From NCBI GenBank assembly GCA_964412775.1, contig CAYPPX010000003.1, positions 75,467 to 139,466 of the forward strand: 64,000 bases of DNA, written 5' to 3'. Position numbers and translations under genes: made by a program. A model generated the notes under the pieces. It searched no databases and was not told where the DNA came from. It saw only the letters and a program-made list of their open reading frames with translations. Shown here in pieces: positions 1 to 45,012 of this stretch (its first letter is position 1; each line of letters begins with the position of its first letter). Origin of the DNA: an uncultured Pseudomonadales bacterium (GTDB taxonomy: Bacteria > Patescibacteriota > Microgenomatia > UBA1400 > PJMF01).

Positions 1-92
1 ATTCCACGGTTATTCATTTCATTACACAGATTATAAGCAATTTTAGCAGCTCCACCCCTGTAATCATGAGTACTGATGAATAATATTTTCAT
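1..92 (-). CDS. Partial CDS, 5' end of a GT4-type glycosyltransferase; continues beyond the window
   Basis: Reverse-complement of 1..92 reads MKILFISTHDYRGGAAKIAYNLCNEMNNRG, a typical GT4 N-terminus. Its ATG overlaps the stop codon of the ORF at 89..874 (ATGA coupling). Confidence 0.5.
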   Translation of the reverse strand, partial: MKILFISTHDYRGGAAKIAYNLCNEMNNRG

Positions 93-874
93 TGGTTTAT
101 TTTGGCTCGATAGTTTAAAAAATATTTTTTTAGTTTTGTTATTTCCATAAGTTTGTTAGCAAATAGTTTACTATTAAATAAGATAAAATATCTTAACGCA
201 GGTAATTTGCCAAAATTATTTAAGATTGAAAGATAGGTTTCAAAGTATGATTTCTTCAAATTAGAACTAGCCCCCTCGCCATTAAAATTACAGATAATTT
301 CATTTGTTTTTAAAGTTGTTAGGTTTTTTTCAGCAAAAATTTTACAAAGCAAATCAAAATCTGCTGCTAAAGTATAATTTTCATCAAACATAAATTTTTC
401 AATAAGTTTTTTCTTAATAAAATATGCTTGTTGGGGTATTTTTTGTCCTCTTTTTAAGTTATTTAGACTTAATTCTTTCTTGATAACATAATTATTTTTT
501 TCATTAGTGTAAGAAACTAAAGTATTACCATAGATAAAATCAGGTTGATTATAATTTTGAATTAATTTTGATAATTTTTTTATGAGATCATTGCTAAAAA
601 ATAAATCGCCAGAATTTAAAAAATAAAGATATTCACCACTAGCAAGCTCAACACCTTTATTCATGGCATTATAGATTCCAGAATCTTTTTCACTTATAAA
701 GTAGTCAATTTTTTTACTAAAAGACTTTATAATTTTTAGAGAGTTATCAGTGGATTTACCATCAATAATGATAAACTCTGCTTTTTTTTCCTGGTTAATA
801 ATACTTTCGATTGTTTTTTTTAAACCAACTTCATTATTTAAGTTTATAGTGATAACAGAAATTAGTGGTTTCAT
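89..874 (-). CDS. Family 2 glycosyltransferase (GT-A fold)
   Basis: N-terminal ISVITINLNNE...IIIDGKSTD with DXD-containing GT2 signature. 4-nt overlap with the next gene. Confidence 0.7.
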   Translation of the reverse strand: MKPLISVITINLNNEVGLKKTIESIINQEKKAEFIIIDGKSTDNSLKIIKSFSKKIDYFISEKDSGIYNAMNKGVELASGEYLYFLNSGDLFFSNDLIKKLSKLIQNYNQPDFIYGNTLVSYTNEKNNYVIKKELSLNNLKRGQKIPQQAYFIKKKLIEKFMFDENYTLAADFDLLCKIFAEKNLTTLKTNEIICNFNGEGASSNLKKSYFETYLSILNNFGKLPALRYFILFNSKLFANKLMEITKLKKYFLNYRAKINQ

Positions 875-1980
875 TTATTTAAGTATTTCTCATAACTTTC
901 TAATAAATTAGAAAAAGAATTTTGTTTTAAAAACTTTTCTTTCTCAATAGTAATCTTTTTTTCTAGACTGGAAAAGTCAATCTTACTATTTTCTATAGAT
1001 TCAAATATTTTTTCTAGGTCTTGATCATTTTTGTAGAAGATATTTGTTTTTTCATCTAAAATAACTTTATTAGCTGACAGATCAGAAGCAATGGTAACTT
1101 TATTTAGTAATAAGTGATGAATCGTTTTTAATCCGGGCTGTTTACCAGAAATTCTTGGTGATAAGCAGGCTAATGCATGACTCAAAAGGTAATTTGATTT
1201 TTTTAAACTAAGTTCACTTATAAACATTATATTTCTATTTTTTTTATATTTTTCAATTAGTTTTTTATCAGCTCTACCAATCAGTACTAAGTCAAACTTT
1301 CTCGTTTTCTGACTATAAATTTTAATAAAATTTTCTATTCCTTGGTATTTTTTAAAGTTACCACTATAGGCTAAATATGGTTTATTAGTCGGAATAGCTA
1401 TTTTTTGTATAGTAGTGTCTGTTTGATCATGAAATAAAATTGTTTTTTTATTTTCAAATAGCTTCTGTTGCTTATACATTGGCCAATTTAAAATAAAAAA
1501 ATTAAATCTTTTAACAATCAATTTTTCTACAAAATTAATAAGATATAATAGAATATTATTTTTATAATTATTTATTTCCAAATTGTCTTTAATTCTGTTG
1601 TGTAAATCATAAACAAAAATTAGTTTGGGATAAAAAAAACTAATAAATAAGCCAATACTAGCTGCTTCAAAATCTTCACAATGGATTACATCATATTTTT
1701 TATTTTTTAGTAAACTTAAGGCTTTTTTTAAAATCAAACAATCTAAATAGATTTTTTTTAGGGTAATTTTTCCTGCTTCTTGATTTAAAAAAATATTTTC
1801 TCCTACTTCAAAAAGGTTTATTTTGTTAAAACTTTCAGTTGTTGACTTGGTTTTATATGAAATTAAATCAATCTGGTGGTTTTGGGAGAGGATATTAGCA
1901 ATACTTTGAATTCTCAAAGTAGAGCCTTTGGCTCCGTAGTATGGGCTAGTAGTAATAATTAAAATTCTTTTTTTAGTCAT
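871..1980 (-). CDS. GT4-type (GT-B fold) glycosyltransferase
   Basis: RILIITTSPYYGAKGSTLRIQSIANIL N-terminus with GT-B organisation. Operon-coupled to both neighbours. Confidence 0.6.
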   Translation of the reverse strand: MTKKRILIITTSPYYGAKGSTLRIQSIANILSQNHQIDLISYKTKSTTESFNKINLFEVGENIFLNQEAGKITLKKIYLDCLILKKALSLLKNKKYDVIHCEDFEAASIGLFISFFYPKLIFVYDLHNRIKDNLEINNYKNNILLYLINFVEKLIVKRFNFFILNWPMYKQQKLFENKKTILFHDQTDTTIQKIAIPTNKPYLAYSGNFKKYQGIENFIKIYSQKTRKFDLVLIGRADKKLIEKYKKNRNIMFISELSLKKSNYLLSHALACLSPRISGKQPGLKTIHHLLLNKVTIASDLSANKVILDEKTNIFYKNDQDLEKIFESIENSKIDFSSLEKKITIEKEKFLKQNSFSNLLESYEKYLNK

Positions 1981-2899
1981 TGAATAAGTATTTTTTTAGG
2001 TTTCTTTTAATTTTTCCTTTAAAAATATCCCAAGAACTAGTTCTATAAATTTTCTTAAAATTATTTAAAATTTCTGCATTTAATATAACTTTATCAGGTA
2101 ATCTCATTTTTTGTGTGAATTTATAATCTAAGTTGTTACTATATTTTTTGTTTTTACTAGAGTGTTCTCCACTCCCATCTTGACCAATATTATCAACTAA
2201 CGGCTTTACTGGATACAGACAATAACCATGATTTTTAAACAAATGGTAAGCAAAACGAATCGCCCATGAATTTATCAAACCTTGCATCTGCATTTCTAAC
2301 ATACTATATAAATCGTTACCCCCTTGATTAAAATTTTTGATTTCAGTTGAATTTTTTTTAAATTTATCAAAATCTATAACTTGCCAATCAACCTTATTCC
2401 ACTTGTTTTTCCAGGTAGCCCAGCCCCAAGAGCTAGGTCTGGAAGTAAAAAAGACATCAAATTGGTAATTAGTTGGAATTTTTAATAATTGATTATCGAA
2501 ACTAAATCCAGAAATGGAAAAAATGTTTTCTTCAGTTTCATATCGTTGAAGCATGGTATTCATGAACTGAAGAAATGATGGATGAGTAACTAAGTCATCT
2601 TCTAGAATAATGACGGTTTTATGGGTTTCTAAGACTTTAGAAACTCCAGTTATTATCGAATTGGCTAAGCCAATGTTTGTTCCTTGGTTATTAATAATGA
2701 CTTTTTTAAATTTACTTTTATAAGAATCAACTACTTCTCTTGTTTTTATTACTTTTTTTGAATTAACATCTTTTTTAGGGCCATCGGCAAAAACGTATAA
2801 AGTGCTTTGATTAGCTAAAGTATTTTTGGCTAAAGAAGCTAAGGTTTGTTTGGTGTGTTCCGGCCTGTTATAGATAAAAAGAGCAATTGGTGAAATCAT
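1973..2899 (-). CDS. GT-A-like glycosyltransferase (family uncertain)
   Basis: IALFIYNRPEHTKQTLASL ... ILEDDLV acidic motif, Rossmann-like GT-A pattern. Confidence 0.45.
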   Translation of the reverse strand: MISPIALFIYNRPEHTKQTLASLAKNTLANQSTLYVFADGPKKDVNSKKVIKTREVVDSYKSKFKKVIINNQGTNIGLANSIITGVSKVLETHKTVIILEDDLVTHPSFLQFMNTMLQRYETEENIFSISGFSFDNQLLKIPTNYQFDVFFTSRPSSWGWATWKNKWNKVDWQVIDFDKFKKNSTEIKNFNQGGNDLYSMLEMQMQGLINSWAIRFAYHLFKNHGYCLYPVKPLVDNIGQDGSGEHSSKNKKYSNNLDYKFTQKMRLPDKVILNAEILNNFKKIYRTSSWDIFKGKIKRNLKKYLFND

Positions 2900-3636
2900 T
2901 TTATTTTCTTTACGAAAGTTACATTTGCTACAGACAAAAGTCTATCTGTTTTAATAAATATGTTTATTAATTTATCTAAGAGTTTAAATATTAAATAAAA
3001 AAATCTCTTAACATAAGGAAATTTATTTTTTTTGTGCCATATGTTTATTATTTTTTCGTTATATTTTGTAAACATCCATGGCTCTAAAACTACTCTTTGT
3101 TTTCTCATTTCTAATAGTTGGTCTGAATATTTATTAATTTCATTAAAAAGCTCATTAGGTTCCCAACAATAAACATGGTGTGGGTCAGTATTCCAAATAA
3201 CAGAATACTTTGAAGGAGATTTAATAATTCCAACACCCCCTGGCTCTAGTACTCTAATAATTTCTTTTACATAAAATTTACCAGTTTTTTTATCTAAATG
3301 TTCTATAACTTGATTCATTAAAACAAAAGAAAAATAATTATCTTTAAACGGTAATTTTTTATTATTTTCTAAAAAAAACTTTTTTACATTAACTTTCTTT
3401 TTGAGCAATGTAGCATAACCATAATTAGATCCTTCTAAGGCATAAACCTTGTAAGGGTAATTTTTAAGAGCTTCAATAAAAGATCCAACACCACTCCCTA
3501 TATCTAATATTCTTTGGAAACTCTTACCTTTATAGTTGATTTTTGCCTCATTTAATATATTTAAATAACTATAAATATTAACATCAGAATAGTATGTTTC
3601 TAATTTTTTCTCTAAAATACCTTTTTTATTTATCAT
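2896..3636 (-). CDS. Class I SAM-dependent methyltransferase
   Basis: ILDIGSGVGSFIEAL glycine-rich SAM-binding motif I, with downstream acidic motif II. Confidence 0.7.
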   Translation of the reverse strand: MINKKGILEKKLETYYSDVNIYSYLNILNEAKINYKGKSFQRILDIGSGVGSFIEALKNYPYKVYALEGSNYGYATLLKKKVNVKKFFLENNKKLPFKDNYFSFVLMNQVIEHLDKKTGKFYVKEIIRVLEPGGVGIIKSPSKYSVIWNTDPHHVYCWEPNELFNEINKYSDQLLEMRKQRVVLEPWMFTKYNEKIINIWHKKNKFPYVKRFFYLIFKLLDKLINIFIKTDRLLSVANVTFVKKIK

Positions 3637-3641
3637 TTTAT

Positions 3642-5783
3642 TTATTCAATTTTACTAATTAACTTATAATGTTCAAAGGTTTTTTTTATTTTTTCATCAT
3701 TTTTCCCATTGGTTACGTTTTCAAACCAAAGTGGGCTAAGTTGAAATCTTTTTATAGAGTAATAGTCATTTCTACCTGTATAAAGTACTTTTGTATTGTT
3801 TAATAAGCTCATAGCTTTAAACCATATATCATCAGCATCTTTACATATTTTTGTAAATTCATATTTATTAAAAACTTCAAGATTCAAGCTACCTGGAGGA
3901 TATAAAATTCCACCTAATCCTGTAGCAAAATTATTAAATGATATAGATTTTACTTTAGCTGGTTTCCAATTGATGTATTTTTCTAAATCATTATCATGAG
4001 TTTTCGTTATTTTGACACATCTATTTGCAATAATTAAATTTGGATTTTTATTGCTTTCATTAATTAAATTTTTTATAAAGTCTTTTTTATATATTGCATC
4101 ATCATCTATAGTAATTATTTTATAATTATTAAACTCTTTTAAACTATATAATAATTTTTTATAAGATTTTAAATTCTCATTAACATATATGATTTCTAGA
4201 CCTCTTTTAATTAATCTTTTTATTTTTTTATCATTTATGTCTTCAGAAAATTCTTCCTTAGAAAGATATAGACGAACTTTTTTAGGTTTATAACTTTGAT
4301 TTAAAATAGACTCAATTACAATATATATATTGTTAAATCTTTTTGGAAAAGTTGTTAAGCTTATTATTACATCACTGGAACTATTAACTCCTGATTTATT
4401 ACTAAATAAATTTACTAATTTTATTTTTACTATTAAAATTTCCAAATAAATGTTTTTAATTATGTAAAATAATCTCAATGACCTGATTAAATTAAAAGAT
4501 TTTAATTGCATATAGAAGCATTCTCTTGTCGACTTAAAAAAGTACAAACTAAAGAAATTAACAAAAAAATAGGAAAATATAGTTGAAAAAGCAGCTGCAA
4601 TTATTCCATATTCTTTGAGGAATATTAAATTTAATACAATATTTATTACTGCACCAATAGAAGTTCTTAATAGGGCATTAATTGTCTTATTTTCAGCTAC
4701 CACCCATTTTGAAGCAATTATTCCTAGAAAAACAAAAACGCCTGACCAAATGTGTACAGAAAGTATTGTAGAAGCATAAGAATATTCATGACCATACAAA
4801 ATATTTATTATTTGTCTTGAAAAAATAAATATTAATATACTTATAAATAAAGAAGCAATTGTTGATACATCAAATAAAAATTGCAATCTGTCTTTGTATA
4901 ATTTTTTACTTTTTTTTCTAGCTGATAATATATATGGAAAAATTGAAGATCCAATTATTGTTGGTATGAAATACCAAGCCTCAGAAAGTTTAACAGCAGA
5001 ATAATAAATCCCAACTTCCTTTGTACCAATCATTGATCCTATTAATATTTGGTCAACTTTCATATAAATAATTGAAGAGAATGCAGATAACATTATTGGC
5101 CAGCTATCAAAAAAAATTTCTTTTGAAATATTAAAATTTATTTTCCATTCAGTTATTTTCAATTTTTCTTTTTTCTTATAAAAATAAATTAAAAGTAGAA
5201 ATGTTATTAAATTCTCAATTAATATGGTAAATACAAAACTTGTAGTGTCTAATTTTATAAATATAAAATAAAATTTGAGTAGTGATACTATGGAAAATGA
5301 TATCAATCGTGATATTACTGGATATTTTGATTTTGTTTTTGATTGAAACCAAAAATCAATAACATCAAAAATTTTAAAATAATAGCTTATAGAAATTAAA
5401 AATATAAATATTTTTATTTTTAACTCTTCAATATTCAGGAAATTTACAAGAATAACTAGGAGGAAAGACATTATTATTGTACTAAGAATTTTTATAAATA
5501 ATGCACTTCCTAAATAATATTTTTCTTTACCTTTTTTATAAATAAAATCTCTTATTAATATATTATCTATACCAAAAGATCCAACCACTGCTGCTATTGA
5601 TACTAATGAAATTGCATAATTCATACTTCCAAATTCATCAGGACCTAAATACCTAGCAACCTGGCTTATTACAAATATTCCTATAAAACCCTTTAAAATA
5701 TTTTCTAGTATTAACCAATTAATATTTTTAAAAATTTTTAAAAATTCTTTGTTATCTATTATTGATTTAAAAATTTTTTTCAT
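3642..5783 (-). CDS. Fusion protein: Wzx/MOP-type oligosaccharide flippase (about 12 TM, N-terminal ~420 aa) plus C-terminal GT-A-like domain with DDD motif
   Basis: N-terminal half is polytopic with Wzx-like topology. C-terminal half is soluble: TTFPKRF...IITIDDDAIY...GLGGILYPPG. Confidence 0.55.
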   Translation of the reverse strand: MKKIFKSIIDNKEFLKIFKNINWLILENILKGFIGIFVISQVARYLGPDEFGSMNYAISLVSIAAVVGSFGIDNILIRDFIYKKGKEKYYLGSALFIKILSTIIMSFLLVILVNFLNIEELKIKIFIFLISISYYFKIFDVIDFWFQSKTKSKYPVISRLISFSIVSLLKFYFIFIKLDTTSFVFTILIENLITFLLLIYFYKKKEKLKITEWKINFNISKEIFFDSWPIMLSAFSSIIYMKVDQILIGSMIGTKEVGIYYSAVKLSEAWYFIPTIIGSSIFPYILSARKKSKKLYKDRLQFLFDVSTIASLFISILIFIFSRQIINILYGHEYSYASTILSVHIWSGVFVFLGIIASKWVVAENKTINALLRTSIGAVINIVLNLIFLKEYGIIAAAFSTIFSYFFVNFFSLYFFKSTRECFYMQLKSFNLIRSLRLFYIIKNIYLEILIVKIKLVNLFSNKSGVNSSSDVIISLTTFPKRFNNIYIVIESILNQSYKPKKVRLYLSKEEFSEDINDKKIKRLIKRGLEIIYVNENLKSYKKLLYSLKEFNNYKIITIDDDAIYKKDFIKNLINESNKNPNLIIANRCVKITKTHDNDLEKYINWKPAKVKSISFNNFATGLGGILYPPGSLNLEVFNKYEFTKICKDADDIWFKAMSLLNNTKVLYTGRNDYYSIKRFQLSPLWFENVTNGKNDEKIKKTFEHYKLISKIE

Positions 5784-5784
5784 A

Positions 5785-6528
5785 CTAATTTAGTAAATAA
5801 ATTTTAAAATTTTGAGTTTCTTTTATTAAGTTGTAATTTATATTTAATTCTAATTGTTCAATATAATTTTTATTATCTATTAAATTTTGTTTTTTACCCT
5901 TAATAATTTCTTCTCTGGTTGATTTATTAAAAATAATTTTAGTCCCATAAATATTAGTGAAGAAGTCCTTGTAGTTATTTTCACTTTTTTCTTGAATAAA
6001 GCAGTTAATATTATATTTTTTGAGTGTATTTTCTAAACCTAAAATATTAACATCTGAAACAAATTCTTTTGATTCTAAGATCTGGTTACCATTAATTTCT
6101 TCTGAATCAATAATTGGTGCGTAATAAGAATATGTATTTATACTATAAATGCATCTATTAAAACTATTAGTATTATTCTTAACGTACTCCTTTATTTCTA
6201 TGTAATTTATTCTATAAAATGACATTATTTCTAGGACTTTTATTTTCGAAATAAATAAAAAATAAGTAGTTATGATAATACTAACAATAAAATAAATATA
6301 GAAACTAACTTTACGGATTTTATTTATTAAAACGTATAGTGATATTAAAATAGGGATAATCAAAAAAATGTTGTAATAATTATGTATATAAATTACTTTA
6401 GAAGCTATTACTAAATAGGATAAAAAAGAACCTAAAATAGAAATTATAAAAATATCAGATTTTTGTTTAATTTCTTTGCTTATTATTATTTTTGTAAATG
6501 AAATAATAGCTAAAAAAAATAAAAACAT
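5785..6528 (-). pseudogene. Probable C-terminal part of the same membrane protein as 6467..7780 (frameshift, or a separate small membrane protein)
   Basis: Start codon is embedded in (A)8T(A)5CAT(A)6. Two TM helices then a ~150 aa soluble domain, matching the layout of the other GT-C/YfhO-like genes here. Confidence 0.3.
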
Positions 6529-7780
6529 AAAAAATTATTGGTTCAACGATAAAAACAAGTAAATTTTTAAATATTTTTTCATACATTGGTAAGTAAAAAA
6601 TTAAGTTTTTACTAGTAAGAAAATCGTCTGCATAAAAGAAAATTTTTTCTTTTAACAAAAATAAAGAAATTGAAGATATAGATATTAAAAATATAGAAAA
6701 GAAATATATAGTTTTTACAGGTAGTTTATTTAATTTTTTAAATAAAAATTCATTTGTAAATTTGTAAATCAAAATTATAGTTATAAACCATATGAAGTTA
6801 TTTAAAATATTTTGATATAGGCTTATTTTTGAATAATTAAAAACCACTAAAACTAGAGGTATAAATTGGCCTAAAGATAAAAATAGAAATATAAAGTTTT
6901 CTATAATTGTTTTTTTATAATTTTTATTATTCTTTAGAAAAGAACTAATAAACACTATTGGATATGTCCATATAAAAATTGAGCTTTTTGTAATTGTTCC
7001 TATTCCTAATGTTATTGCAGATAAAATTAAATATTTAACATTTCTATTTTTTTGATATTTTTCAAATAAAATTAATGATAAAAAAGTAAAAGTAATCAAA
7101 AGCGAATCTATAACAGTAACGTAATGAGAAAAATTTATAATTGGATTAAGTGCTATAACAGAAGTTGCTAGCACGGATGTGAAATAAGAAACTTTTTTAG
7201 ATAAATAAATGTAAATTAGTGTTAGATTTGTTATTAACAATAAGTGTAAAAATATCCTTGTTGCCAGTTCAATAGGTATATTTAAAAAATAATAAGTACT
7301 AGCTAACAACCATTCAAAAATTGGAAAATGATTTAGATCTAATTTTTCACCTTCCAAGTTGGAAACATTATTTAAATAATACTTTTTTTGGTAGTTAAAA
7401 ATATTTTTACTTTTGACAATATAGTTAGCTGGTTCTACGTAAGCGGCATATTTCATTGGGTGGTCAGTAGTAAATGGTGTATTAAAAAATTTAACCCTAA
7501 AAATAGTTAGAAATATAAAGAAAATAATAAGTAAAAAATTACTTATTACTCTTTCTCTTTTTAAAAAAAATTGTTCAATAGTAGATTCTTTTTTATTAGC
7601 TATTAAATATTTAAAATATTTATCAGAAAAAATTAATGTAACTGTTATTAGTGCTAAAAATGTAATTAATTTGAAAAATATTATTTCAACATAAAAGTTG
7701 ATTTTAAAAAAACTTAAAAAACTAATAGATAAACTAATAAAAACTAAAATTTTAATTATTTGTTGTAATTTTTTTTTCAT
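6467..7780 (-). CDS. Polytopic membrane protein, probable N-terminal part of a frameshift-interrupted GT-C-like gene
   Basis: More than 10 predicted TM helices. ORF ends in an A8/T8 homopolymer tract and overlaps the next ORF by 62 nt in another frame. Confidence 0.4.
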   Translation of the reverse strand: MKKKLQQIIKILVFISLSISFLSFFKINFYVEIIFFKLITFLALITVTLIFSDKYFKYLIANKKESTIEQFFLKRERVISNFLLIIFFIFLTIFRVKFFNTPFTTDHPMKYAAYVEPANYIVKSKNIFNYQKKYYLNNVSNLEGEKLDLNHFPIFEWLLASTYYFLNIPIELATRIFLHLLLITNLTLIYIYLSKKVSYFTSVLATSVIALNPIINFSHYVTVIDSLLITFTFLSLILFEKYQKNRNVKYLILSAITLGIGTITKSSIFIWTYPIVFISSFLKNNKNYKKTIIENFIFLFLSLGQFIPLVLVVFNYSKISLYQNILNNFIWFITIILIYKFTNEFLFKKLNKLPVKTIYFFSIFLISISSISLFLLKEKIFFYADDFLTSKNLIFYLPMYEKIFKNLLVFIVEPIIFYVFIFFSYYFIYKNNNKQRN

Positions 7781-8382
7781 TTTACTTCAAAAAACAACAG
7801 GTTTTTTTGTTTATTATCTTTTTTATTTTTTATAAATAATTCTTTTTTACCTTTATCCATCACCGGTACCTCAAAAACCACCTCTTTATCACTCCATTTT
7901 TTTATATTCATTTCTGCACCATCTAAATACACTTTTCCAGGCTCATGAGGCTCACCAAAGTTCTTACCAGTAATTCTCACTAAACTCCCCTGGATTCCCC
8001 AATCATTACTGAGTTTTTTGATTTTGGGGTATTGTTGTAAATCACTGTAAAAATGTGTGTATTGGTTATGAAAAAATAGAGTTATTAAGAATAACCCAAC
8101 AATAAAAAAATTAATTTTTGGCCATTTTATTAGCTGATTTTTAATACTAACAAGTGAAAATATAACTATTAGTAGTAAAAGATAAATAGTTGTGTATTTA
8201 TAATTTAAGCTATCATAAAGCCACCAATACTCAGTAGTTAAATACTGAAAAACATCAACCGTAACTAGAAAAATAGTTAAAATTATTAAACTTAGCAACA
8301 ACTCAGGTAGTAACTTAGACCAACTGAACTCAGTTGTTGTCTGTGGTTTCTTTGATTTCATAAAACTTGGGATTATAGGCAC
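7777..8382 (-). CDS. Small membrane protein (3-4 TM) with C-terminal IPT/TIG-like domain
   Basis: GSLVRITGKNFGEPHEPGKVYLDGAEMNIKKWSDKEVVFEVP matches the IPT/TIG consensus (G..I.G.NF....V.....A......S...I...VP). Confidence 0.5.
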   Translation of the reverse strand: MPIIPSFMKSKKPQTTTEFSWSKLLPELLLSLIILTIFLVTVDVFQYLTTEYWWLYDSLNYKYTTIYLLLLIVIFSLVSIKNQLIKWPKINFFIVGLFLITLFFHNQYTHFYSDLQQYPKIKKLSNDWGIQGSLVRITGKNFGEPHEPGKVYLDGAEMNIKKWSDKEVVFEVPVMDKGKKELFIKNKKDNKQKNLLFFEVK

Positions 8383-9250
8383 GAATAATTAGGTCCATAA
8401 TCAAACCACTAACAAAGATTTGAACACCAAATAACATCATAAACACTGCTACTAAGGGCCACATCCTTGTACCGATACCATGAAATAAAATAAATTTTTC
8501 AATCAGCATCCAAACAGCAATCAGGAAACCAACTCCAAAACTAAAGATACCTAGAGCCCCCAACATATGAAGTGGTCTAGCAGCAAACTTATGAAAAAAC
8601 CACAAAGTCAGCATATCCATGAAGCCTTTGATCGTTCTAGTCAGGTTGTATTTACTCACTCCAGAAAGTCTAGGTCTGTGTTTCACTGGCATCTCACCAA
8701 TCTTAAAACCACGCCACACCAATAGAGCTGGGATAAAACGATGCATTTCCCCTCTCAAAGTCATGCCTGTAAAACACTCTTTTTTGTAAACTCTCAGGGT
8801 ACAACCAGCATCATGAACATGATCTCGAATCAATATTTCTCTAAGGAATTTTGCTCCTCTAGAAATAAATCTCTTGCCCCAACTATCTTGTCTTTTTTGG
8901 CGCCAACCACAAACCACATCCAGCTTTTCTTGTTCCAATTTTGCAATCATCTCTGGGATACTAGCTGGATCATTTTGGAGATCTCCATCCAGAGATACCA
9001 CATACTTACCTTGGCTAGCTTTGAAGCCAGCATCTAGGGCCGCTGTTTGTCCAGAGTTTCTCCGTAGGGTAATTATTTTTAGGGGCTTGAGGGTTTTTAA
9101 AACTGCTGCTGTTCTATCTCTAGAGCCGTCATCAATAAAAATAATCTCGAACTCTTTTTTGAAAGTTTTGGCTACTTTAAGAATTTCTTCATGAAGTTTT
9201 TTGACATTGCCTTCTTCATTAAAAATCGGTACAACAAAGGAAATATACAT
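8330..9250 (-). CDS. Polyprenol-phosphate glycosyltransferase, GtrB/ArnC/DPM1-like GT2 with C-terminal TM helices
   Basis: ISFVVPIFNEEGNV...FIDDGSRDRTAAV...RNSGQTAALDAGF followed by 2 TM helices, the bactoprenol-P sugar transferase architecture. Confidence 0.7.
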   Translation of the reverse strand: MYISFVVPIFNEEGNVKKLHEEILKVAKTFKKEFEIIFIDDGSRDRTAAVLKTLKPLKIITLRRNSGQTAALDAGFKASQGKYVVSLDGDLQNDPASIPEMIAKLEQEKLDVVCGWRQKRQDSWGKRFISRGAKFLREILIRDHVHDAGCTLRVYKKECFTGMTLRGEMHRFIPALLVWRGFKIGEMPVKHRPRLSGVSKYNLTRTIKGFMDMLTLWFFHKFAARPLHMLGALGIFSFGVGFLIAVWMLIEKFILFHGIGTRMWPLVAVFMMLFGVQIFVSGLIMDLIIRAYNPKFYEIKETTDNN

Positions 9251-11197: not shown

Positions 11198-13078
11198 TTA
11201 TTTTATTACACTTAGTTTATTCAATCTTGTTTCTAAACCACCATCTCTTATCACCCATTTAATACAAAATTCACTTCGAGTTAATTTTTCTATAGCAAAA
11301 GTTGATCTTTGACTATTATAAACATAGCTATTAAGCTCACTACTAGCACAGAGCTCACTATTAAATATTACATAATAATTTCTACTATCAATAGGTGAAG
11401 CAATAAACTGAGGCAAAACTTGGGTTTTTAGATAAATTTCTTCATACCGATCACTGGCTGTTTTTTCTTTACTACACTCACTGAGGAGTTCTTCTTCCAC
11501 CACTAAGTAACCATCAATATTCTGTTCCAAAACACTACAATCACTCGTCCAAGAGAAGTTTTCAAAGTTGTAATTACTGTAGACACCTTGTTTAAATTCT
11601 GGCACTAACTCAGCTAGTTTTTCTGATTTTAGTTCATCTTGATAAAACAAATAGGCTCTAAAACCTGGATAAGGGTTTTTAGTTAAAACTGTCACCATTT
11701 TTTGATTTTCTTGAGCTAGGTTTAAGTATTTAGCCAGTAATCTTTCTTTAAAAAAGTAATTATCGGCAGAATAGACTGGGTAATTATTTTGAAAAATATA
11801 AAAAAAGTAACCAAAATTAATCAACAGACTCCCAACAGTTATTAATTTCAAAAATGAGCCAAGTAAACCCTGCAGGGAAAATAAGTGGTACCAACCAGTG
11901 GCGATAAAAATTGCTAATAAGGGGAAAATCAGACCAGCTCTCAAAGCTGTTGATGTCCCTTGGTGAAGTGCTGCTGGCAGTGGAGCAACTAATAGTAATG
12001 TTAATAGTAAATAAAAAGTATTTTTATGTTTTTGATGTAAAAACCAGCCACCAATAAAAATCAGTGGTAATTCAATCAAATAAGCATACCCAGTTTGAAA
12101 TAAAGAAAATAAAACTGTTGAATCAGTACCAGTAATAAATAAATTAGTGGGATTAAAAGTAGCCAGATATCTAATACCGATTTCTCTAGCTAACACGGTA
12201 TATTTATTGATTAATAAACTAGTCATTGGTGTCAAAAAGCCTAGTTTACGACTAGAGTTAACTAGTTCCGCCAAAAATTCTTGATCCAAAAAAATTAACT
12301 CGGCTTGACGATCACCATAGCCACTCATTGAAGTTAAAAACTTAATCACCAATAGAAGCATTAAGCCACCAAAGATTAAATATGGCTGGGTAAGTTTTAC
12401 CTTGGTTTTTTTATCGGCAAGCCACCATTGCCAAACGAATGGGATCACTACTAATAATGGCATAATTAATTTATAACCATGATAGGAGTAAAAACCGACA
12501 AAATATGCAAAAAATGAACCAATTGCCAGTAAAATAGCCTGAGAAGTTTTTTTCGTTTCAGCTAAACTTATTAACCAATAAATACCCAAAAGATAAAACA
12601 TTAAAGCATTGGGCGCTTCATAAGCGGTATGAGCAAACAAAATACTCCAAGGACTAAGTGAGAAAACCAAACTACTCAGTAAAGCTAAAGCCTTGTTCTT
12701 GCTGATTTTTTCAACTAATAAACCAATAATCAAAACTGTCAATGAACTAAAAAGCACCGATAGAATCCTGGCATTGAATAAATTCAAGGGCAAAAATTTG
12801 AAAACGAACGCTTGTAAAACTGGAAATAATTCAGAAGTTAAAGTTTCTGTAGCTATCGGTGACAATGAAGTTGGTTGCCAAGTCTGAGTCAAATCAGACC
12901 CAGTCAACGCAATCATTTTGCCATTGAGCACATAATCTAGTTCATCATGGGAAATCGCGACCGGATTGTTAGTTAAATTTAGTAGTCTGAGGCCAAAGGC
13001 AAAAATAATAATTAAGCTCAAAAACATCTTAAAAGACTTACCACTCAATTTTTCATCAAGTCGCACCAACTTTAACAT
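11198..13078 (-). CDS. GT-C fold membrane glycosyltransferase, PMT/ArnT (COG1807)-like
   Basis: About 12 TM helices, first-loop acidic motif (ISHDELDY), C-terminal ~200 aa soluble domain. Paralogous to the other GT-C ORFs in this window. Confidence 0.6.
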   Translation of the reverse strand: MLKLVRLDEKLSGKSFKMFLSLIIIFAFGLRLLNLTNNPVAISHDELDYVLNGKMIALTGSDLTQTWQPTSLSPIATETLTSELFPVLQAFVFKFLPLNLFNARILSVLFSSLTVLIIGLLVEKISKNKALALLSSLVFSLSPWSILFAHTAYEAPNALMFYLLGIYWLISLAETKKTSQAILLAIGSFFAYFVGFYSYHGYKLIMPLLVVIPFVWQWWLADKKTKVKLTQPYLIFGGLMLLLVIKFLTSMSGYGDRQAELIFLDQEFLAELVNSSRKLGFLTPMTSLLINKYTVLAREIGIRYLATFNPTNLFITGTDSTVLFSLFQTGYAYLIELPLIFIGGWFLHQKHKNTFYLLLTLLLVAPLPAALHQGTSTALRAGLIFPLLAIFIATGWYHLFSLQGLLGSFLKLITVGSLLINFGYFFYIFQNNYPVYSADNYFFKERLLAKYLNLAQENQKMVTVLTKNPYPGFRAYLFYQDELKSEKLAELVPEFKQGVYSNYNFENFSWTSDCSVLEQNIDGYLVVEEELLSECSKEKTASDRYEEIYLKTQVLPQFIASPIDSRNYYVIFNSELCASSELNSYVYNSQRSTFAIEKLTRSEFCIKWVIRDGGLETRLNKLSVIK

Positions 13079-26686: not shown

Positions 26687-28336
26687 TTATTCTGTCACTT
26701 TAACCAACCAAGTTTCATTTGCAAAATTAGCCGTAATAGCTGGAGTTTTAGTCACTTCATTTAGAGTATTAATAAACTTAATGTTTTTAAATTCTAAAAA
26801 TTCAGCTTGATCTTTTTTAACTACTTGATTGGCGACCTGAACTTCTTCTGGGTCTGTCTTGGTATAAAACCAATAATACATTGCTGGCCTACCCTGTTCT
26901 CTCGTAATATAGACTGGTAAATCAGGATTATCACGCTGAAGTTTAGTTACTGCCTCAACCATTTGTTGATAACCCACTTGCCATTCATGATCATATAACT
27001 TGGGATAAACATTGAGCAAGTGTCTGTAAAATCCACTAAAAACCACTAAATACAAACCAATAAAAACAAAACCTAGTAAGTAGCTTCTTAAATTCCTTAT
27101 TTTTTCATTAAAACAAAAAAACTTACTTGCTAAAAATTCATAAACTTCATATAAACCATAAGTTAATAAAATTATAAAAGCTGGAGCTGTAGGTAAAATT
27201 CTCAAGGCATGAGGTACTGGCTGAGAAATAGCAGCCGGTAATATTCCAATAATTAACCACCATAAAATAAATAATTTTTTATCAAAAGAAAACTTCTTCA
27301 ATAATACCCATGAACCAACAATCAAGAATAGCACTTCAAATGGATAAAACAAACCAAAATATTGTGAGGAATGACGAGCAATAGCATCACCACTAATAAA
27401 CAAAAAATTAGTTGAAAAATGAGCAAAAAACTGGCTAATAATTAATTTAGCAAAAAACCAATAACGATGGAAAACCAATCTTGTCCACCAATCATTATGG
27501 TATAAACTTTGGAAATAATTACTTTCACTAATAATTTCTAAATTAGAAAAAATCGTGGTTTCAGCTATTCTTTGGCCAAGCACCGGTGAACCCAAAACCT
27601 TAATAAATGGCAACAATAAAAGTATTAAAATTGAAAATATAAAACCAATTTGAAAAAATAATGGTTTTAAAGTTTTGTTAATATTTAGATAGGTTATTAA
27701 ATACCTAAAACCTAAAAATAAACCCAACATTGGGCCAATTAGTCTGGCCGAGTGATAAATATATATTGATAAAACTAAAAAAATTACACTCCAAATAAGA
27801 CTTTTAAAATCATGGTATTTATTTTTTAAATCAAAACTTTTCCAACCAAAAGTCACACCCAATAAAATAAAAAAAGTAGCCAAGTTAACCTCCCAACCAG
27901 CTCTAGAAAATTGAATTAACCAGGGAGAAATGCTTGCCAGTAACATACCAATCAAAGAAAGTTTTTGTCTAGCTTTTTCAGGTAAATAATCAGTTAATAA
28001 ATAAATCAACCAACCCAGCACTAAAACAATTAAAGTCCCAGCAATTACCGAAGGCAATCTGACTGCTAAAACATTCAGACCAACTAATTTTATAAACGGC
28101 ACAATTGCATAAAAATACCCAGCTGGCTTCCAATCACCAAATGACTCAAAAGCCACTAATGGATACGAATTACCATGATGATCTTTACCAGTTTCTAAAA
28201 TTGAATAAGCATCATAACCTAGAGCCACCTCTTCCCAGTATGGAGCTGGTGGGGAACTAGTTACTTGATAAACACGAATAACCAAAGCCAAGGTTGTAAT
28301 CAAAATAATGCTAATAATAAATTTAAATTTTGACAT
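26687..28336 (-). CDS. GT-C fold glycosyltransferase, PMT/ArnT-like
   Basis: APYWEEVALGYDAYSIL acidic first-loop motif, polytopic. Confidence 0.6.
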   Translation of the reverse strand: MSKFKFIISIILITTLALVIRVYQVTSSPPAPYWEEVALGYDAYSILETGKDHHGNSYPLVAFESFGDWKPAGYFYAIVPFIKLVGLNVLAVRLPSVIAGTLIVLVLGWLIYLLTDYLPEKARQKLSLIGMLLASISPWLIQFSRAGWEVNLATFFILLGVTFGWKSFDLKNKYHDFKSLIWSVIFLVLSIYIYHSARLIGPMLGLFLGFRYLITYLNINKTLKPLFFQIGFIFSILILLLLPFIKVLGSPVLGQRIAETTIFSNLEIISESNYFQSLYHNDWWTRLVFHRYWFFAKLIISQFFAHFSTNFLFISGDAIARHSSQYFGLFYPFEVLFLIVGSWVLLKKFSFDKKLFILWWLIIGILPAAISQPVPHALRILPTAPAFIILLTYGLYEVYEFLASKFFCFNEKIRNLRSYLLGFVFIGLYLVVFSGFYRHLLNVYPKLYDHEWQVGYQQMVEAVTKLQRDNPDLPVYITREQGRPAMYYWFYTKTDPEEVQVANQVVKKDQAEFLEFKNIKFINTLNEVTKTPAITANFANETWLVKVTE

Positions 28337-41658: not shown

Positions 41659-43148
41659 TTATTAAGTAAATTTTTTACTTCTCTGAAAATTCGTTGGTGC
41701 CCTACTAACAAAATTACCACCAAATAAACAAAAGAGGTTACAAACATGCCAAGCAACATTGTTCTCAAACTAGTTGCCCAATAATTTAGTTGCCAGCAAC
41801 CAACCAAGGTCATCATCGCTACTCCAACTGTTGCTTCCTTAATTTGAGGTAAGATTTCTAATGGAATATATTTTTTAACCATTTGCACCGAAAAAATTGA
41901 AGTAAAAGAAATCAAAAAAGCTGCCAAAGCTACACCGTTGAAACCTAGCCACCACATCATGATTGGGGTCAAAATCCAAGTCAAAACAGTCCACATCACC
42001 ATCAATTTTAAAGTTTGATTAATATGACCAATCGCATTGAGAGTATTAACTAGTGGCGTTGATAAAGCTGCCCAACCAATGCTCAAGGCAAAGAAAATAA
42101 AACTAAAAATGGCTGGTTCCCACTTGGCATATTTATCGACAACTTGAGTAAGTGGCCAAATAAAGATACTCATTCCTGCTAGGATCGGAAAAATTGCTAA
42201 AGAAATAAAGAAAATTGATTTTTCAATCGCTTTTTTTAGTAAATCTTGGTGATTTTGCAATCTAGAATAAGTTGGGAAAGTAATAGCCATAACATTTTGC
42301 ACAGTTAAATTATATGGATACATAGACCAATTTTTTGCCCATTGAATATAACCGAATTGATCTAATGGTAAAAATGCACCCAAACCCAGATAAAAAAGTT
42401 GATCTTTTATCCTGGCTAAAAAATCGTTTAACTGAAATTTTAAACCGAAGTTCAACATTGATTTTAAAACATTACTACTCCAAAAAAAGCCAATCTCTTT
42501 CCAAGGTTCAATCAGCCACATTACCACTACACCAATTAACGATCTAGCAATAATTGCATAAGCATAAGCCATCACCCCAAAACCTTTTAAAGCTAAAACA
42601 ATCAACAAACCATAAAAAACAATTTGTTCAAAAATTTGGGGAATAACTAGCCTTTGAAACAATAATTTTCTCTCCAATTTGATTGAAGAAACAGTTTTTA
42701 GGGTAGCTAGAGGAAAAGAAATCGCCAAACTTAATAAAACCCAAACACCAGCTTGACCTACTTTGGCTTGAATAAAACCAAAACTTAATAAGCTCAAGAT
42801 TACTGCCACAATCACCCAAGACAATAACCACTGTAAAGTAAAAGCAACTCGATATTCTTCATTTTTAGGATCATTTTTTTGCTGAACGAGTGAGGCTGCT
42901 AAACCAATATCAGAGAAAAAAATCAATAAACCAATAATTTGCGTCACATAACCATAAACACCAAAATCACTTGGTGAAAAAAATGCACTCAAAATAAAAG
43001 CAGCAACTAACCCAATTCCTTGTAAAAAAGCAGTTCTAAAAAAATATGAAATAACTCCAGAAACAGATTTTCTTTTTATTTCTGCTACTTCATCAGTCAT
43101 TAGTTCTTCAAGCTCATCGGTTGTATCGGCTACTGTTTGATTAATCAT
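41655..43148 (-). CDS. Wzx/MOP-superfamily oligosaccharide flippase
   Basis: About 12-14 TM helices and the length and topology of polysaccharide biosynthesis (PST/Wzx) proteins. Confidence 0.6.
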   Translation of the reverse strand: MINQTVADTTDELEELMTDEVAEIKRKSVSGVISYFFRTAFLQGIGLVAAFILSAFFSPSDFGVYGYVTQIIGLLIFFSDIGLAASLVQQKNDPKNEEYRVAFTLQWLLSWVIVAVILSLLSFGFIQAKVGQAGVWVLLSLAISFPLATLKTVSSIKLERKLLFQRLVIPQIFEQIVFYGLLIVLALKGFGVMAYAYAIIARSLIGVVVMWLIEPWKEIGFFWSSNVLKSMLNFGLKFQLNDFLARIKDQLFYLGLGAFLPLDQFGYIQWAKNWSMYPYNLTVQNVMAITFPTYSRLQNHQDLLKKAIEKSIFFISLAIFPILAGMSIFIWPLTQVVDKYAKWEPAIFSFIFFALSIGWAALSTPLVNTLNAIGHINQTLKLMVMWTVLTWILTPIMMWWLGFNGVALAAFLISFTSIFSVQMVKKYIPLEILPQIKEATVGVAMMTLVGCWQLNYWATSLRTMLLGMFVTSFVYLVVILLVGHQRIFREVKNLLNK

Positions 43149-45012
43149 ATTGTTCTCTTGGTTGCTTAGTAACTATTTTTTTAGGGAAGATCAAATAAAT
43201 AAAAATTAACCAACTTAACAAGCTAAGGTAATCAGCGATTGTTCTTAAATTAGTCCCTTCAAACCTTAAACTAATCAAATGACTACCCGCTGGTACTGCC
43301 AATAAAATATTACCATTTTCAGCTTTGTCCTTATTCCACCACTGACCATCAATCTCTGCTCTCCAACCAGGATAAGTTGCAACTGCTAACTCTAAATCAG
43401 TAGTCTCAGCAAAATTAGTTTTAATCAGTTTTTCTTGAGTCCGGTCTACCAAAACTTCAAAACTATCAGTGTCATTATTTATATTCATCACTAATTTTTC
43501 AGGTATCACGGTTGGCTTTTCAAGCATATCTGCAGAAATGTAATCTGGCAAAATACTGCTTAATTGGTGACGAATTTTTAATGAGTCAGTGTAATAAAAA
43601 TCAGTTGAATCAACTAAATATTTTTCTGGTCTAAAATAAATAGCTGAGCCAAAAACAGTAATTACCACTAATAAACCAGTTAACCATACTCTAACAATTT
43701 TGTTTTTAACTAGCCACACTAAACTAGCCAGTAGTAATGCCAAAAAAACAATGGTTATCCCTAACCATCTCCAAGGAAACTGAATAAACTTGAATAACTC
43801 AATCTTATCCCACAAAAACTGAGTTTTTAGTAAACTCATTAAGCTGGTAGTTAAAAATAAGCCAGCAAATAAACTAGTAAAAAAGAATTTTTGTTGAGTA
43901 ATTGGTTGAGCTTGGTTGAAAAATTTTCGCAATATAGACATCAACCAAAGCAAAACTAAAACTACCAAAGCTAAAAGCTGCCCCCAACCAAAGAAAAAAG
44001 AAATTTGATCTTCTGTCCCCCAACCACTTCCACCATAACCCCAGTTCGGAATAAAAAATTGACGAATATATAAAAAGTGCAAGTGATAATCAAAATATGG
44101 GGTCAAGATGATTTTTTCCACTTGAGTATAATTTTTTTCTAAAAAGGCTGGTAATAAATAAAAACTAGCAGCGCCAACAGCCAACAAACCACTACTAGCT
44201 ATTTGCCAACCAATTCTTATCAAGTTCCTCAATCTAAATCTCCCTTTTCTAAAAAGTTCTGGAGCCTGTTGCCAAACCATCCATAAACCATAACTACCAG
44301 CAAATACCAACAAAACTGGTAAAAAGATCATTGTTGTAATATTGTGTGACAAGAACAGTCCCACTAAAGACAAGAAAAAAATCTGCCAACCAGCTTTTTC
44401 TTGATGAAAAAGTTTAATTAATCCCAAAAGAATCCATGGTAAAAACATAATTCCCCAAGCTTCATTTAAAGCACCCCTAGCAAATAAATTCATTGCCCGA
44501 TATGGAGCTAAGGTTAGAAAAGCTGCTACCAATAATCCACCAGCCTGGCCAAAAAACTTTTTACCCAAAAAATAGCCACCAAGCATGGTGCCAAGGTTAG
44601 TGAGCAAATAGAGAAATTTAATACTAATAATGACATTATTTGAAATGATAAAGACTATTGCTCCCAGATAAAATGGTAATGGGCCATAAAACTCAAAAAG
44701 AGGCATCCCATAACCATAACCAAAGTTTGCTGTCCATCTAACCGGGAAATGGCCATCTTGGAGAGCTCTAGCCATTTCAGCAATCCTACCTGCTTGAGTA
44801 AAATCATGCACCCTGAAAAATTGATTGGTCACTAATAAAGACCAGGAAGAGGCCAAAAAAATTAACAACAAAAAAGATAATACAAACCACTGTTTGAATC
44901 TCTGCACAAGCTTATTGTAGCTTAAGATTAGAGAAATGCCTACAATTTTTCTCTTTAAAAAAAATCGTATACAATAGCTGATGTTCATGAAAAAGAAAAA
45001 ACCATTAAACAA
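43141..45012 (-). CDS. Large membrane protein, YfhO-like paralog family A
   Basis: FRVHDFTQAGRIAEMARALQDGHFPVRW N-terminal motif and C-terminal TYPGWRAEIDGQ beta-domain. Confidence 0.5.
   Translation of the reverse strand: MFNGFFFFMNISYCIRFFLKRKIVGISLILSYNKLVQRFKQWFVLSFLLLIFLASSWSLLVTNQFFRVHDFTQAGRIAEMARALQDGHFPVRWTANFGYGYGMPLFEFYGPLPFYLGAIVFIISNNVIISIKFLYLLTNLGTMLGGYFLGKKFFGQAGGLLVAAFLTLAPYRAMNLFARGALNEAWGIMFLPWILLGLIKLFHQEKAGWQIFFLSLVGLFLSHNITTMIFLPVLLVFAGSYGLWMVWQQAPELFRKGRFRLRNLIRIGWQIASSGLLAVGAASFYLLPAFLEKNYTQVEKIILTPYFDYHLHFLYIRQFFIPNWGYGGSGWGTEDQISFFFGWGQLLALVVLVLLWLMSILRKFFNQAQPITQQKFFFTSLFAGLFLTTSLMSLLKTQFLWDKIELFKFIQFPWRWLGITIVFLALLLASLVWLVKNKIVRVWLTGLLVVITVFGSAIYFRPEKYLVDSTDFYYTDSLKIRHQLSSILPDYISADMLEKPTVIPEKLVMNINNDTDSFEVLVDRTQEKLIKTNFAETTDLELAVATYPGWRAEIDGQWWNKDKAENGNILLAVPAGSHLISLRFEGTNLRTIADYLSLLSWLIFIYLIFPKKIVTKQPREQYD

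Follow-up and report, generated by a model that had tools for sequence, protein, structure and literature searches.

ORF A and ORF B, two overlapping reading frames in the 64 kb stretch of DNA analysed here (the window, Table 1), make up one gene of 664 codons, coding for a GT-C (PMT_2) membrane glycosyltransferase and interrupted by a single additional base within a stack of short homopolymers. This reading is strongly supported, since the repaired protein has the very length of its syntenic ortholog and distant relatives carry the same gene in a single frame. A frameshifted gene was one of the explanations put forward in an earlier note, made from the sequence alone, and it is the one borne out by the comparisons reported below. 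The chances are about even that the additional base is an extra T, inserted by unprogrammed replication slippage and real in the sequenced population, in which case the gene would be a young pseudogene or a null allele of recent origin. In annotation, ORF A and ORF B should be joined into a single entry, marked as a frameshifted GT-C gene, rather than reported as two proteins.

Structure of the interrupted gene

The two ORFs overlap by 62 nt (6467-6528) in different frames, the frame of ORF B lying one base further on; coordinates and overlap had been given correctly in the earlier note, and the strand is the minus one. The junction reads A8-T-A5-CAT-A6 on the plus strand, corresponding to T6-ATG-T5-A-T8 on the coding strand. 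All three runs had been described as lying across the overlap: they are present as described, but A6 is found just beyond the formal overlap, yet within the stop-free stretch of frame B. The tail of ORF A consists of 16 out-of-frame codons, followed by a TAA at 6467-6469.

Table 1. Coordinates of the interrupted gene, of the elements of its junction and of the neighbouring genes (positions in the window).
Feature	Position	Strand	Description
ORF A	6467..7780	minus	437 aa; N-terminal membrane part, PMT_2 domain
ORF B	5785..6528	minus	247 aa; remainder of the split TM helix, 3 further predicted TM segments, soluble tail of about 145 aa
Interrupted GT-C (Pfam PMT_2) gene	5785..7780	minus	664 codons after removal of one base in the run region
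T8 on the coding strand (A8 on the plus strand)	6512..6519	minus	likeliest place of the insertion (T7 becoming T8)
T5, ATG of ORF B, T6	6521-6525, 6526-6528, 6529-6534	minus	T5 and T6 are alternative insertion sites
TAA of frame B	6535..6537	minus	upstream limit of the possible frame change; translation NQ*FFMFLFF
TIG/IPT-domain membrane protein	7777..8382	minus	201 aa; GTG start; stop overlaps the ATG of ORF A (ATGA)
GT2 polyprenyl-phosphate glycosyltransferase, ArnC/PgfS/AglJ-like	8330..9250	minus	Pfam Glycos_transf_2
Wzx-type flippase (Polysacc_synt) and GT2 fusion	3642..5783	minus	713 aa; downstream, same operon-like array

Each of the three runs was edited in turn: the removal of one base or the addition of two, in A8, A5 or A6, always produced one continuous ORF. 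The restoration of a single frame by a one-base change, proposed earlier as a check, is thus obtained by a deletion in the run region, and the resulting protein, 664 aa long, falls short of the approximately 680 aa first estimated. Directly downstream of the T8 run frame B agrees with the ortholog (A/L-I-I-S), and upstream it is closed by the TAA reported in Table 1, so the insertion most likely lies within 6512-6534, an interval made up entirely of the three runs. Being the longest of them, T8 is the most likely site, with T7 having become T8; repairs in T8, T5 or T6 give a hydrophobic helix of equal length each time and do not distinguish the exact run.

ORF A was matched by the Pfam family PMT_2 (PF13231) with a score of 30.3 bits, against a cutoff of 26.1, over residues 151-306 and profile positions 2-151 of 160; ORF B found no match in either Pfam or NCBIfam. 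The same PF13231 annotation is carried, as a precomputed one, by the homologs P0002 to P0005. Kyte-Doolittle analysis of the repaired protein predicted about 11-12 hydrophobic segments up to residue 519, followed by a polar tail of 145 aa, in agreement with the polytopic membrane part and soluble C-terminal domain anticipated in the earlier note. Membrane core and soluble tail are found in one polypeptide in the repaired protein and in the ortholog, not in ORF A alone, and the junction falls in the middle of a predicted TM helix, at about residues 405-430. The acidic residues E116, E156 and D225 are invariant in the alignment and are candidates for the conserved acidic residue that the GT-C fold carries in its first external loop. 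The remaining part of the gene, in ORF B, carries 10 of the invariant alignment columns and the strongest motif of the family, YLxxASKVIxIHNYYN. Profile searches of the PDB gave no meaningful match to the gene, NCBIfam holds no equivalog for it, and an AlphaFold2 model of the ortholog, obtained from a shallow alignment, reached a mean pLDDT of 54; the putative assignment to the GT-C fold is based on the Pfam match and on the predicted topology.

Relatives and genomic context of the gene

The best foreign match to the repaired protein (P0002) is a single gene whose product also has exactly 664 residues and is 45% identical to it across 100% of the length. It is located on contig CAZIBP010000004.1 (loci L001 and L004), within a MAG of study SRP093185, in the order GT2 (306 aa), 201-aa protein, GT-C, flippase-GT2 fusion, methyltransferase and further glycosyltransferases. 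The window shares this gene order, with a nucleotide identity of 65-71%. A comparison with orthologous loci had been suggested as a check, and in this one syntenic ortholog a single gene, rather than two, is found. At the site corresponding to the junction the ortholog reads TTTTGTTTGTTCTTATTACAG, with no homopolymer run. The portion encoded by ORF B is 50% identical to the ortholog, vs. 43% for ORF A.

Three further homologs, sharing 27-31% identity, span both halves of the repaired protein. One stop-free frame covers both halves in six loci (L004-L008 and L010), namely those of the ortholog, of two Methanolobus genomes, of Methanosarcina sp. Mfa9 and of two MAGs, one from an unclassified archaeon and one from Patescibacteria. 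At E<=1e-30, an exhaustive HMMER search identified 135 representative clusters, whose members come from methanogens, DPANN-like archaea and Patescibacteria MAGs, and the junction is crossed in one matched stretch by 126 of the best 150 family representatives.

A recurrent natural split was considered on account of short, C-terminal-only matches, starting near the profile position of ORF B, but none of the four that were checked proved genuine. Three of them (P0130, P0127 and P0141) are fragments, each lying at the end of a short contig (1.0-1.5 kb). The fourth (P0137, 267 aa) has a mis-called start: its frame is open for about 650 codons (L014 2852-4804; JGI 3300042196, Ga0395785_0003364), and the gene call leaves 1.25 kb unannotated. 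A distant GT-C homolog, on the Woesearchaeota MAG contig CAZGIL010000010.1 (L011 6001-6941), is split over two frames at another position (query residues 144/182), with no long homopolymer in the stretch where the frames overlap; like the MAG of the ortholog, this one stems from a third-party co-assembly series, of the same kind. The label of the ortholog MAG, 'uncultured Pseudomonadales bacterium', looks doubtful, because the next-closest relatives of its GT-C gene are found in Patescibacteria and archaeal genomes.

The window has a GC content of about 35% and few Shine-Dalgarno motifs, and it encodes TrmD, an OmpR-type regulator and a protein of the LCP family, which indicate a bacterial origin. 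Its entire 64 kb form a glycosylation island, including eight PMT_2-type and two PTPS_related-type GT-C paralogs, none of them close to the broken gene. Three more large membrane ORFs lack a family match (11198..13078, 26687..28336 and 43141..45012). Between 9296 and 58778 the island also contains many GT2 and GT4 genes, sugar-nucleotide epimerases, dehydratases, two Wzx-like flippases and the LCP-family protein. The GT2 gene (8330-9250) has a GC content of 38% and the nine ORFs downstream of it (window 1-8300) one of 20-29%, and amino acid identity to the ortholog drops from 75% to 45-51% in those downstream ORFs where it was measured; the ortholog locus has an epimerase gene and a 219-aa ORF in addition. 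On these grounds, the low-GC part resembles a serotype-like cassette that diverges fast and is joined to a conserved module.

The genes next to the interrupted one have counterparts in the ortholog locus. The GT2 matched the NCBIfam models of three polyprenyl-phosphate sugar synthases, ArnC (E 1.8e-46), PgfS and AglJ, over its full length, all below the equivalog cutoffs, and the 201-aa TIG-domain protein is 51% identical to an ortholog of the same size. The two genes overlap by 53 nt out of frame (8330-8382), and both the overlap and the lengths of the products (306 and 201 aa) recur in the ortholog locus (L001 9399-9451); this overlap is therefore conserved, unlike that between ORF A and ORF B. 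On the other side, the fusion protein combines a Wzx/MurJ-type flippase domain with a C-terminal GT2 domain, and its ortholog gene codes for 729 aa.

By analogy with ArnC/ArnT and GtrB/Gtr modules, the GT2, presumed to be the maker of the lipid-linked sugar donor, would attach a sugar to a lipid phosphate within the cell, from which the GT-C enzyme would then pass it on to an envelope glycan or protein outside the membrane. One extra T, most likely in the run at 6512-6519, would break the frame within a T-rich stretch encoding a TM helix rich in Phe, Ile and Leu. The sequence as written would then yield a 437-aa product devoid of the last three to four TM segments, of the ASKVIxIHNYYN motif and of the soluble domain, and presumably inactive because these parts are missing.

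Origin of the extra base

A biological insertion, rather than an artefact, appears to be the better account of the extra base. The null allele would be recent, since ORF B is without decay, and would lie in a variable, dispensable glycan cassette, not being an evolved switch. Being undecayed, and even slightly better conserved than ORF A, ORF B points to a change that is very recent, reversible or not real; the intact family motif that it carries likewise points to a recent or artefactual change. This lack of decay is equally expected from a sequencing artefact or from a reversible switch, and both were weighed.

Under the first of these, the organism would have T7 and an intact 664-aa gene, the eighth T being a homopolymer miscall or a minority variant in a metagenomic co-assembly, an explanation that we consider possible, but not probable. 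The earlier note had included a sequencing error or a true pseudogene in a caveat, and it is this caveat that covers the better-supported reading. An artefact is suggested by the intact state of ORF B, conserved at least as well as ORF A, by a break falling exactly within a stack of homopolymers, by a source that is seemingly metagenome-assembled, with the proteins known only from one 146.6-kb NCBI contig, and by the other homolog split over two frames in a related MAG series (L011, see above). Against it, a Pfam scan of 54 further ORFs of the window showed near-complete domain coverage in all those with a match: not one truncated domain was found, despite 32 other runs of at least 8 nt, indicating that the assembly is not generally indel-ridden. 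A Logan contig (L003, run SRR5011273) is 100% identical to the window over positions 3364-5917 (2554 bp) and reproduces exactly four neighbouring 8-nt runs, although it ends 550 nt short of the junction and probably shares reads with the assembly of the window. Finally, in short-read assemblies the consensus seldom carries indel errors at runs of 8 nt, if the window derives from such an assembly.

Several searches were aimed at other versions of the junction. A homolog search across it returned only ORF A and ORF B of the window itself, and among JGI metagenome contigs there was no match either to a variable-gap pattern spanning the tract or to a 25-mer inside the gene. No strains of the same species were found among GTDB species representatives and JGI metagenome contigs, and exact look-up of protein records retrieved neither the three repaired 664-aa variants nor the guessed partial proteins at contig edges. 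A megablast search of the plasmid collection with window positions 5000-9000, a search of the literature for the study and run accessions and a search of the window for close paralogs of the broken gene were all negative.

True phase variation, in which the T run would be a contingency tract and slipped-strand mispairing would toggle the glycosyltransferase, and hence the modification of surface glycans, within the population, is unlikely. A one-base change in length does toggle the frame; the gene codes for a surface-glycan or protein glycosyltransferase and lies in the low-GC, fast-diverging cassette; the undecayed ORF B is what a reversible OFF state would leave; and A/T runs as long as this one are known to be prone to slippage (PMC1088944). 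The tests run, however, do not support the slipped-strand switch proposed in the earlier note. The window contains 33 A/T runs of at least 8 nt, of which 31 have exactly 8 nt and two have 9, no run reaching 10, and 14 of the 33 fall in the 8-kb low-GC island; the T8 tract thus has the same length as 30 other runs, 8 being the commonest length among long runs. When the codon order of the repaired gene was shuffled, 7.2 runs of at least 7 nt were expected and 8 were observed, and 3.2 runs of at least 8 nt were expected vs. 2 observed. T8 is therefore at chance level for the codon composition. Given this background frequency, and its absence from the only ortholog, it is explained as a by-product of Phe, Ile and Leu codons in a gene of 20% GC, not as a conserved repeat. 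Moreover, the searches across the junction turned up no length variant.

Longer runs are scarcer than expected in the genes of the island, where codon shuffles predict about 6 runs of at least 9 nt and only 1 is present; slippery runs of this size appear to be avoided rather than exploited. The depletion fits the threshold of about nine bases at which selection against slippery A/T runs sets in in many bacterial genomes, runs of at least nine being depleted across AT-rich genomes (Baranov et al. 2005, PMC1088944). Over the whole window the run-length spectrum stops abruptly at 8, and several runs of at least 9 nt are predicted by codon shuffles. The low-GC island has its longest homopolymer, an A9 on the coding strand (7769-7777), directly after the ATG of the GT-C gene (ATG AAA AAA AAA TTA) and on the ATGA overlap with the gene for the 201-aa protein; this run is missing in the ortholog (MKILIKK), and a priori slippage is more to be expected there than at T8. 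That T8, perhaps together with A9, forms a working slipped-strand switch of a GT-C enzyme in an uncultured low-GC bacterium is judged more improbable still than phase variation as such. If true, the T8 switch would amount to glycan phase variation in a possibly Patescibacteria-type lineage with an unusually large glycosylation island; to our knowledge, surface-glycan phase variation has not been documented in this group. Truly mixed tract lengths would be a modest first hint of such variation in an uncultured lineage; otherwise, the break would be a commonplace null allele, or a flaw of the assembly, in a variable cassette of surface-glycan genes.

Programmed recoding, by which the full-length protein would be made through RNA-polymerase slippage on T8/A8, or through +1 ribosomal slippage of tRNA-Phe on UUU UUU U, is very improbable. 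Re-pairing from U3-5 to U4-6 would be perfect on the run, and runs of eight A can yield about 10% of corrected mRNA, seemingly used in some IS elements (PMC1088944). On the other hand, the two-frame layout is conserved in none of the homologs checked, the run of 8 nt is shorter than the nine-base length at which selection against slippage shows in many genomes (PMC1088944), and the junction has no stimulatory RNA structure (fold z = -0.58), no SD-like element upstream and no slow A-site codon. Promoter-like matches are below shuffle expectation, and the sole terminator-like match (8321-8336) is located about 1.8 kb from the junction. Incidental RNA-polymerase slippage on T8 could still give a little full-length protein.

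Two truly separate genes, with the membrane core and the C-terminal module of a split GT-C enzyme made as two polypeptides, are hardly credible: ORF B has its own ATG, and its lack of a Shine-Dalgarno motif is uninformative, because few genes of this genome have such a motif (9 of 50 starts), but the boundary cuts a TM helix, the 62-nt out-of-frame overlap is missing in the ortholog and in all relatives checked, and the C-terminal-only homologs checked are fragments or mis-calls.

Comparison with known systems

The repaired protein resembles ArnT, PMT and the O-antigen-modifying GT-C enzymes of Gtr type, having a PMT_2 match above threshold and a polytopic core with a C-terminal soluble domain. 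As in the ArnT and Gtr modules paired with a GT2 of ArnC or GtrB type, an ArnC/PgfS/AglJ-like GT2 lies upstream, within a large island of glycan genes. Unlike those enzymes, it has no NCBIfam equivalog and no solved structure detectable by sequence, belongs to a small sub-family, and its gene is interrupted here.

In the phase-variable glycosyltransferase loci of Campylobacter, Haemophilus, Neisseria and Helicobacter the length of an intragenic homopolymer sets the frame of a surface-glycan gene, and in this respect the locus is like them. Classic contingency tracts stand out from the genomic background, are usually poly-G/C or longer repeats, and persist with variable length among strains, whereas T8 is at background level and missing in the ortholog. 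The locus is also like the homopolymer frameshift pseudogenes and null alleles of AT-rich bacteria, in which an A/T run altered by one base breaks up an otherwise intact gene; compared with these, nothing is distinctive about it, a one-base homopolymer frameshift being an ordinary and well-known phenomenon.
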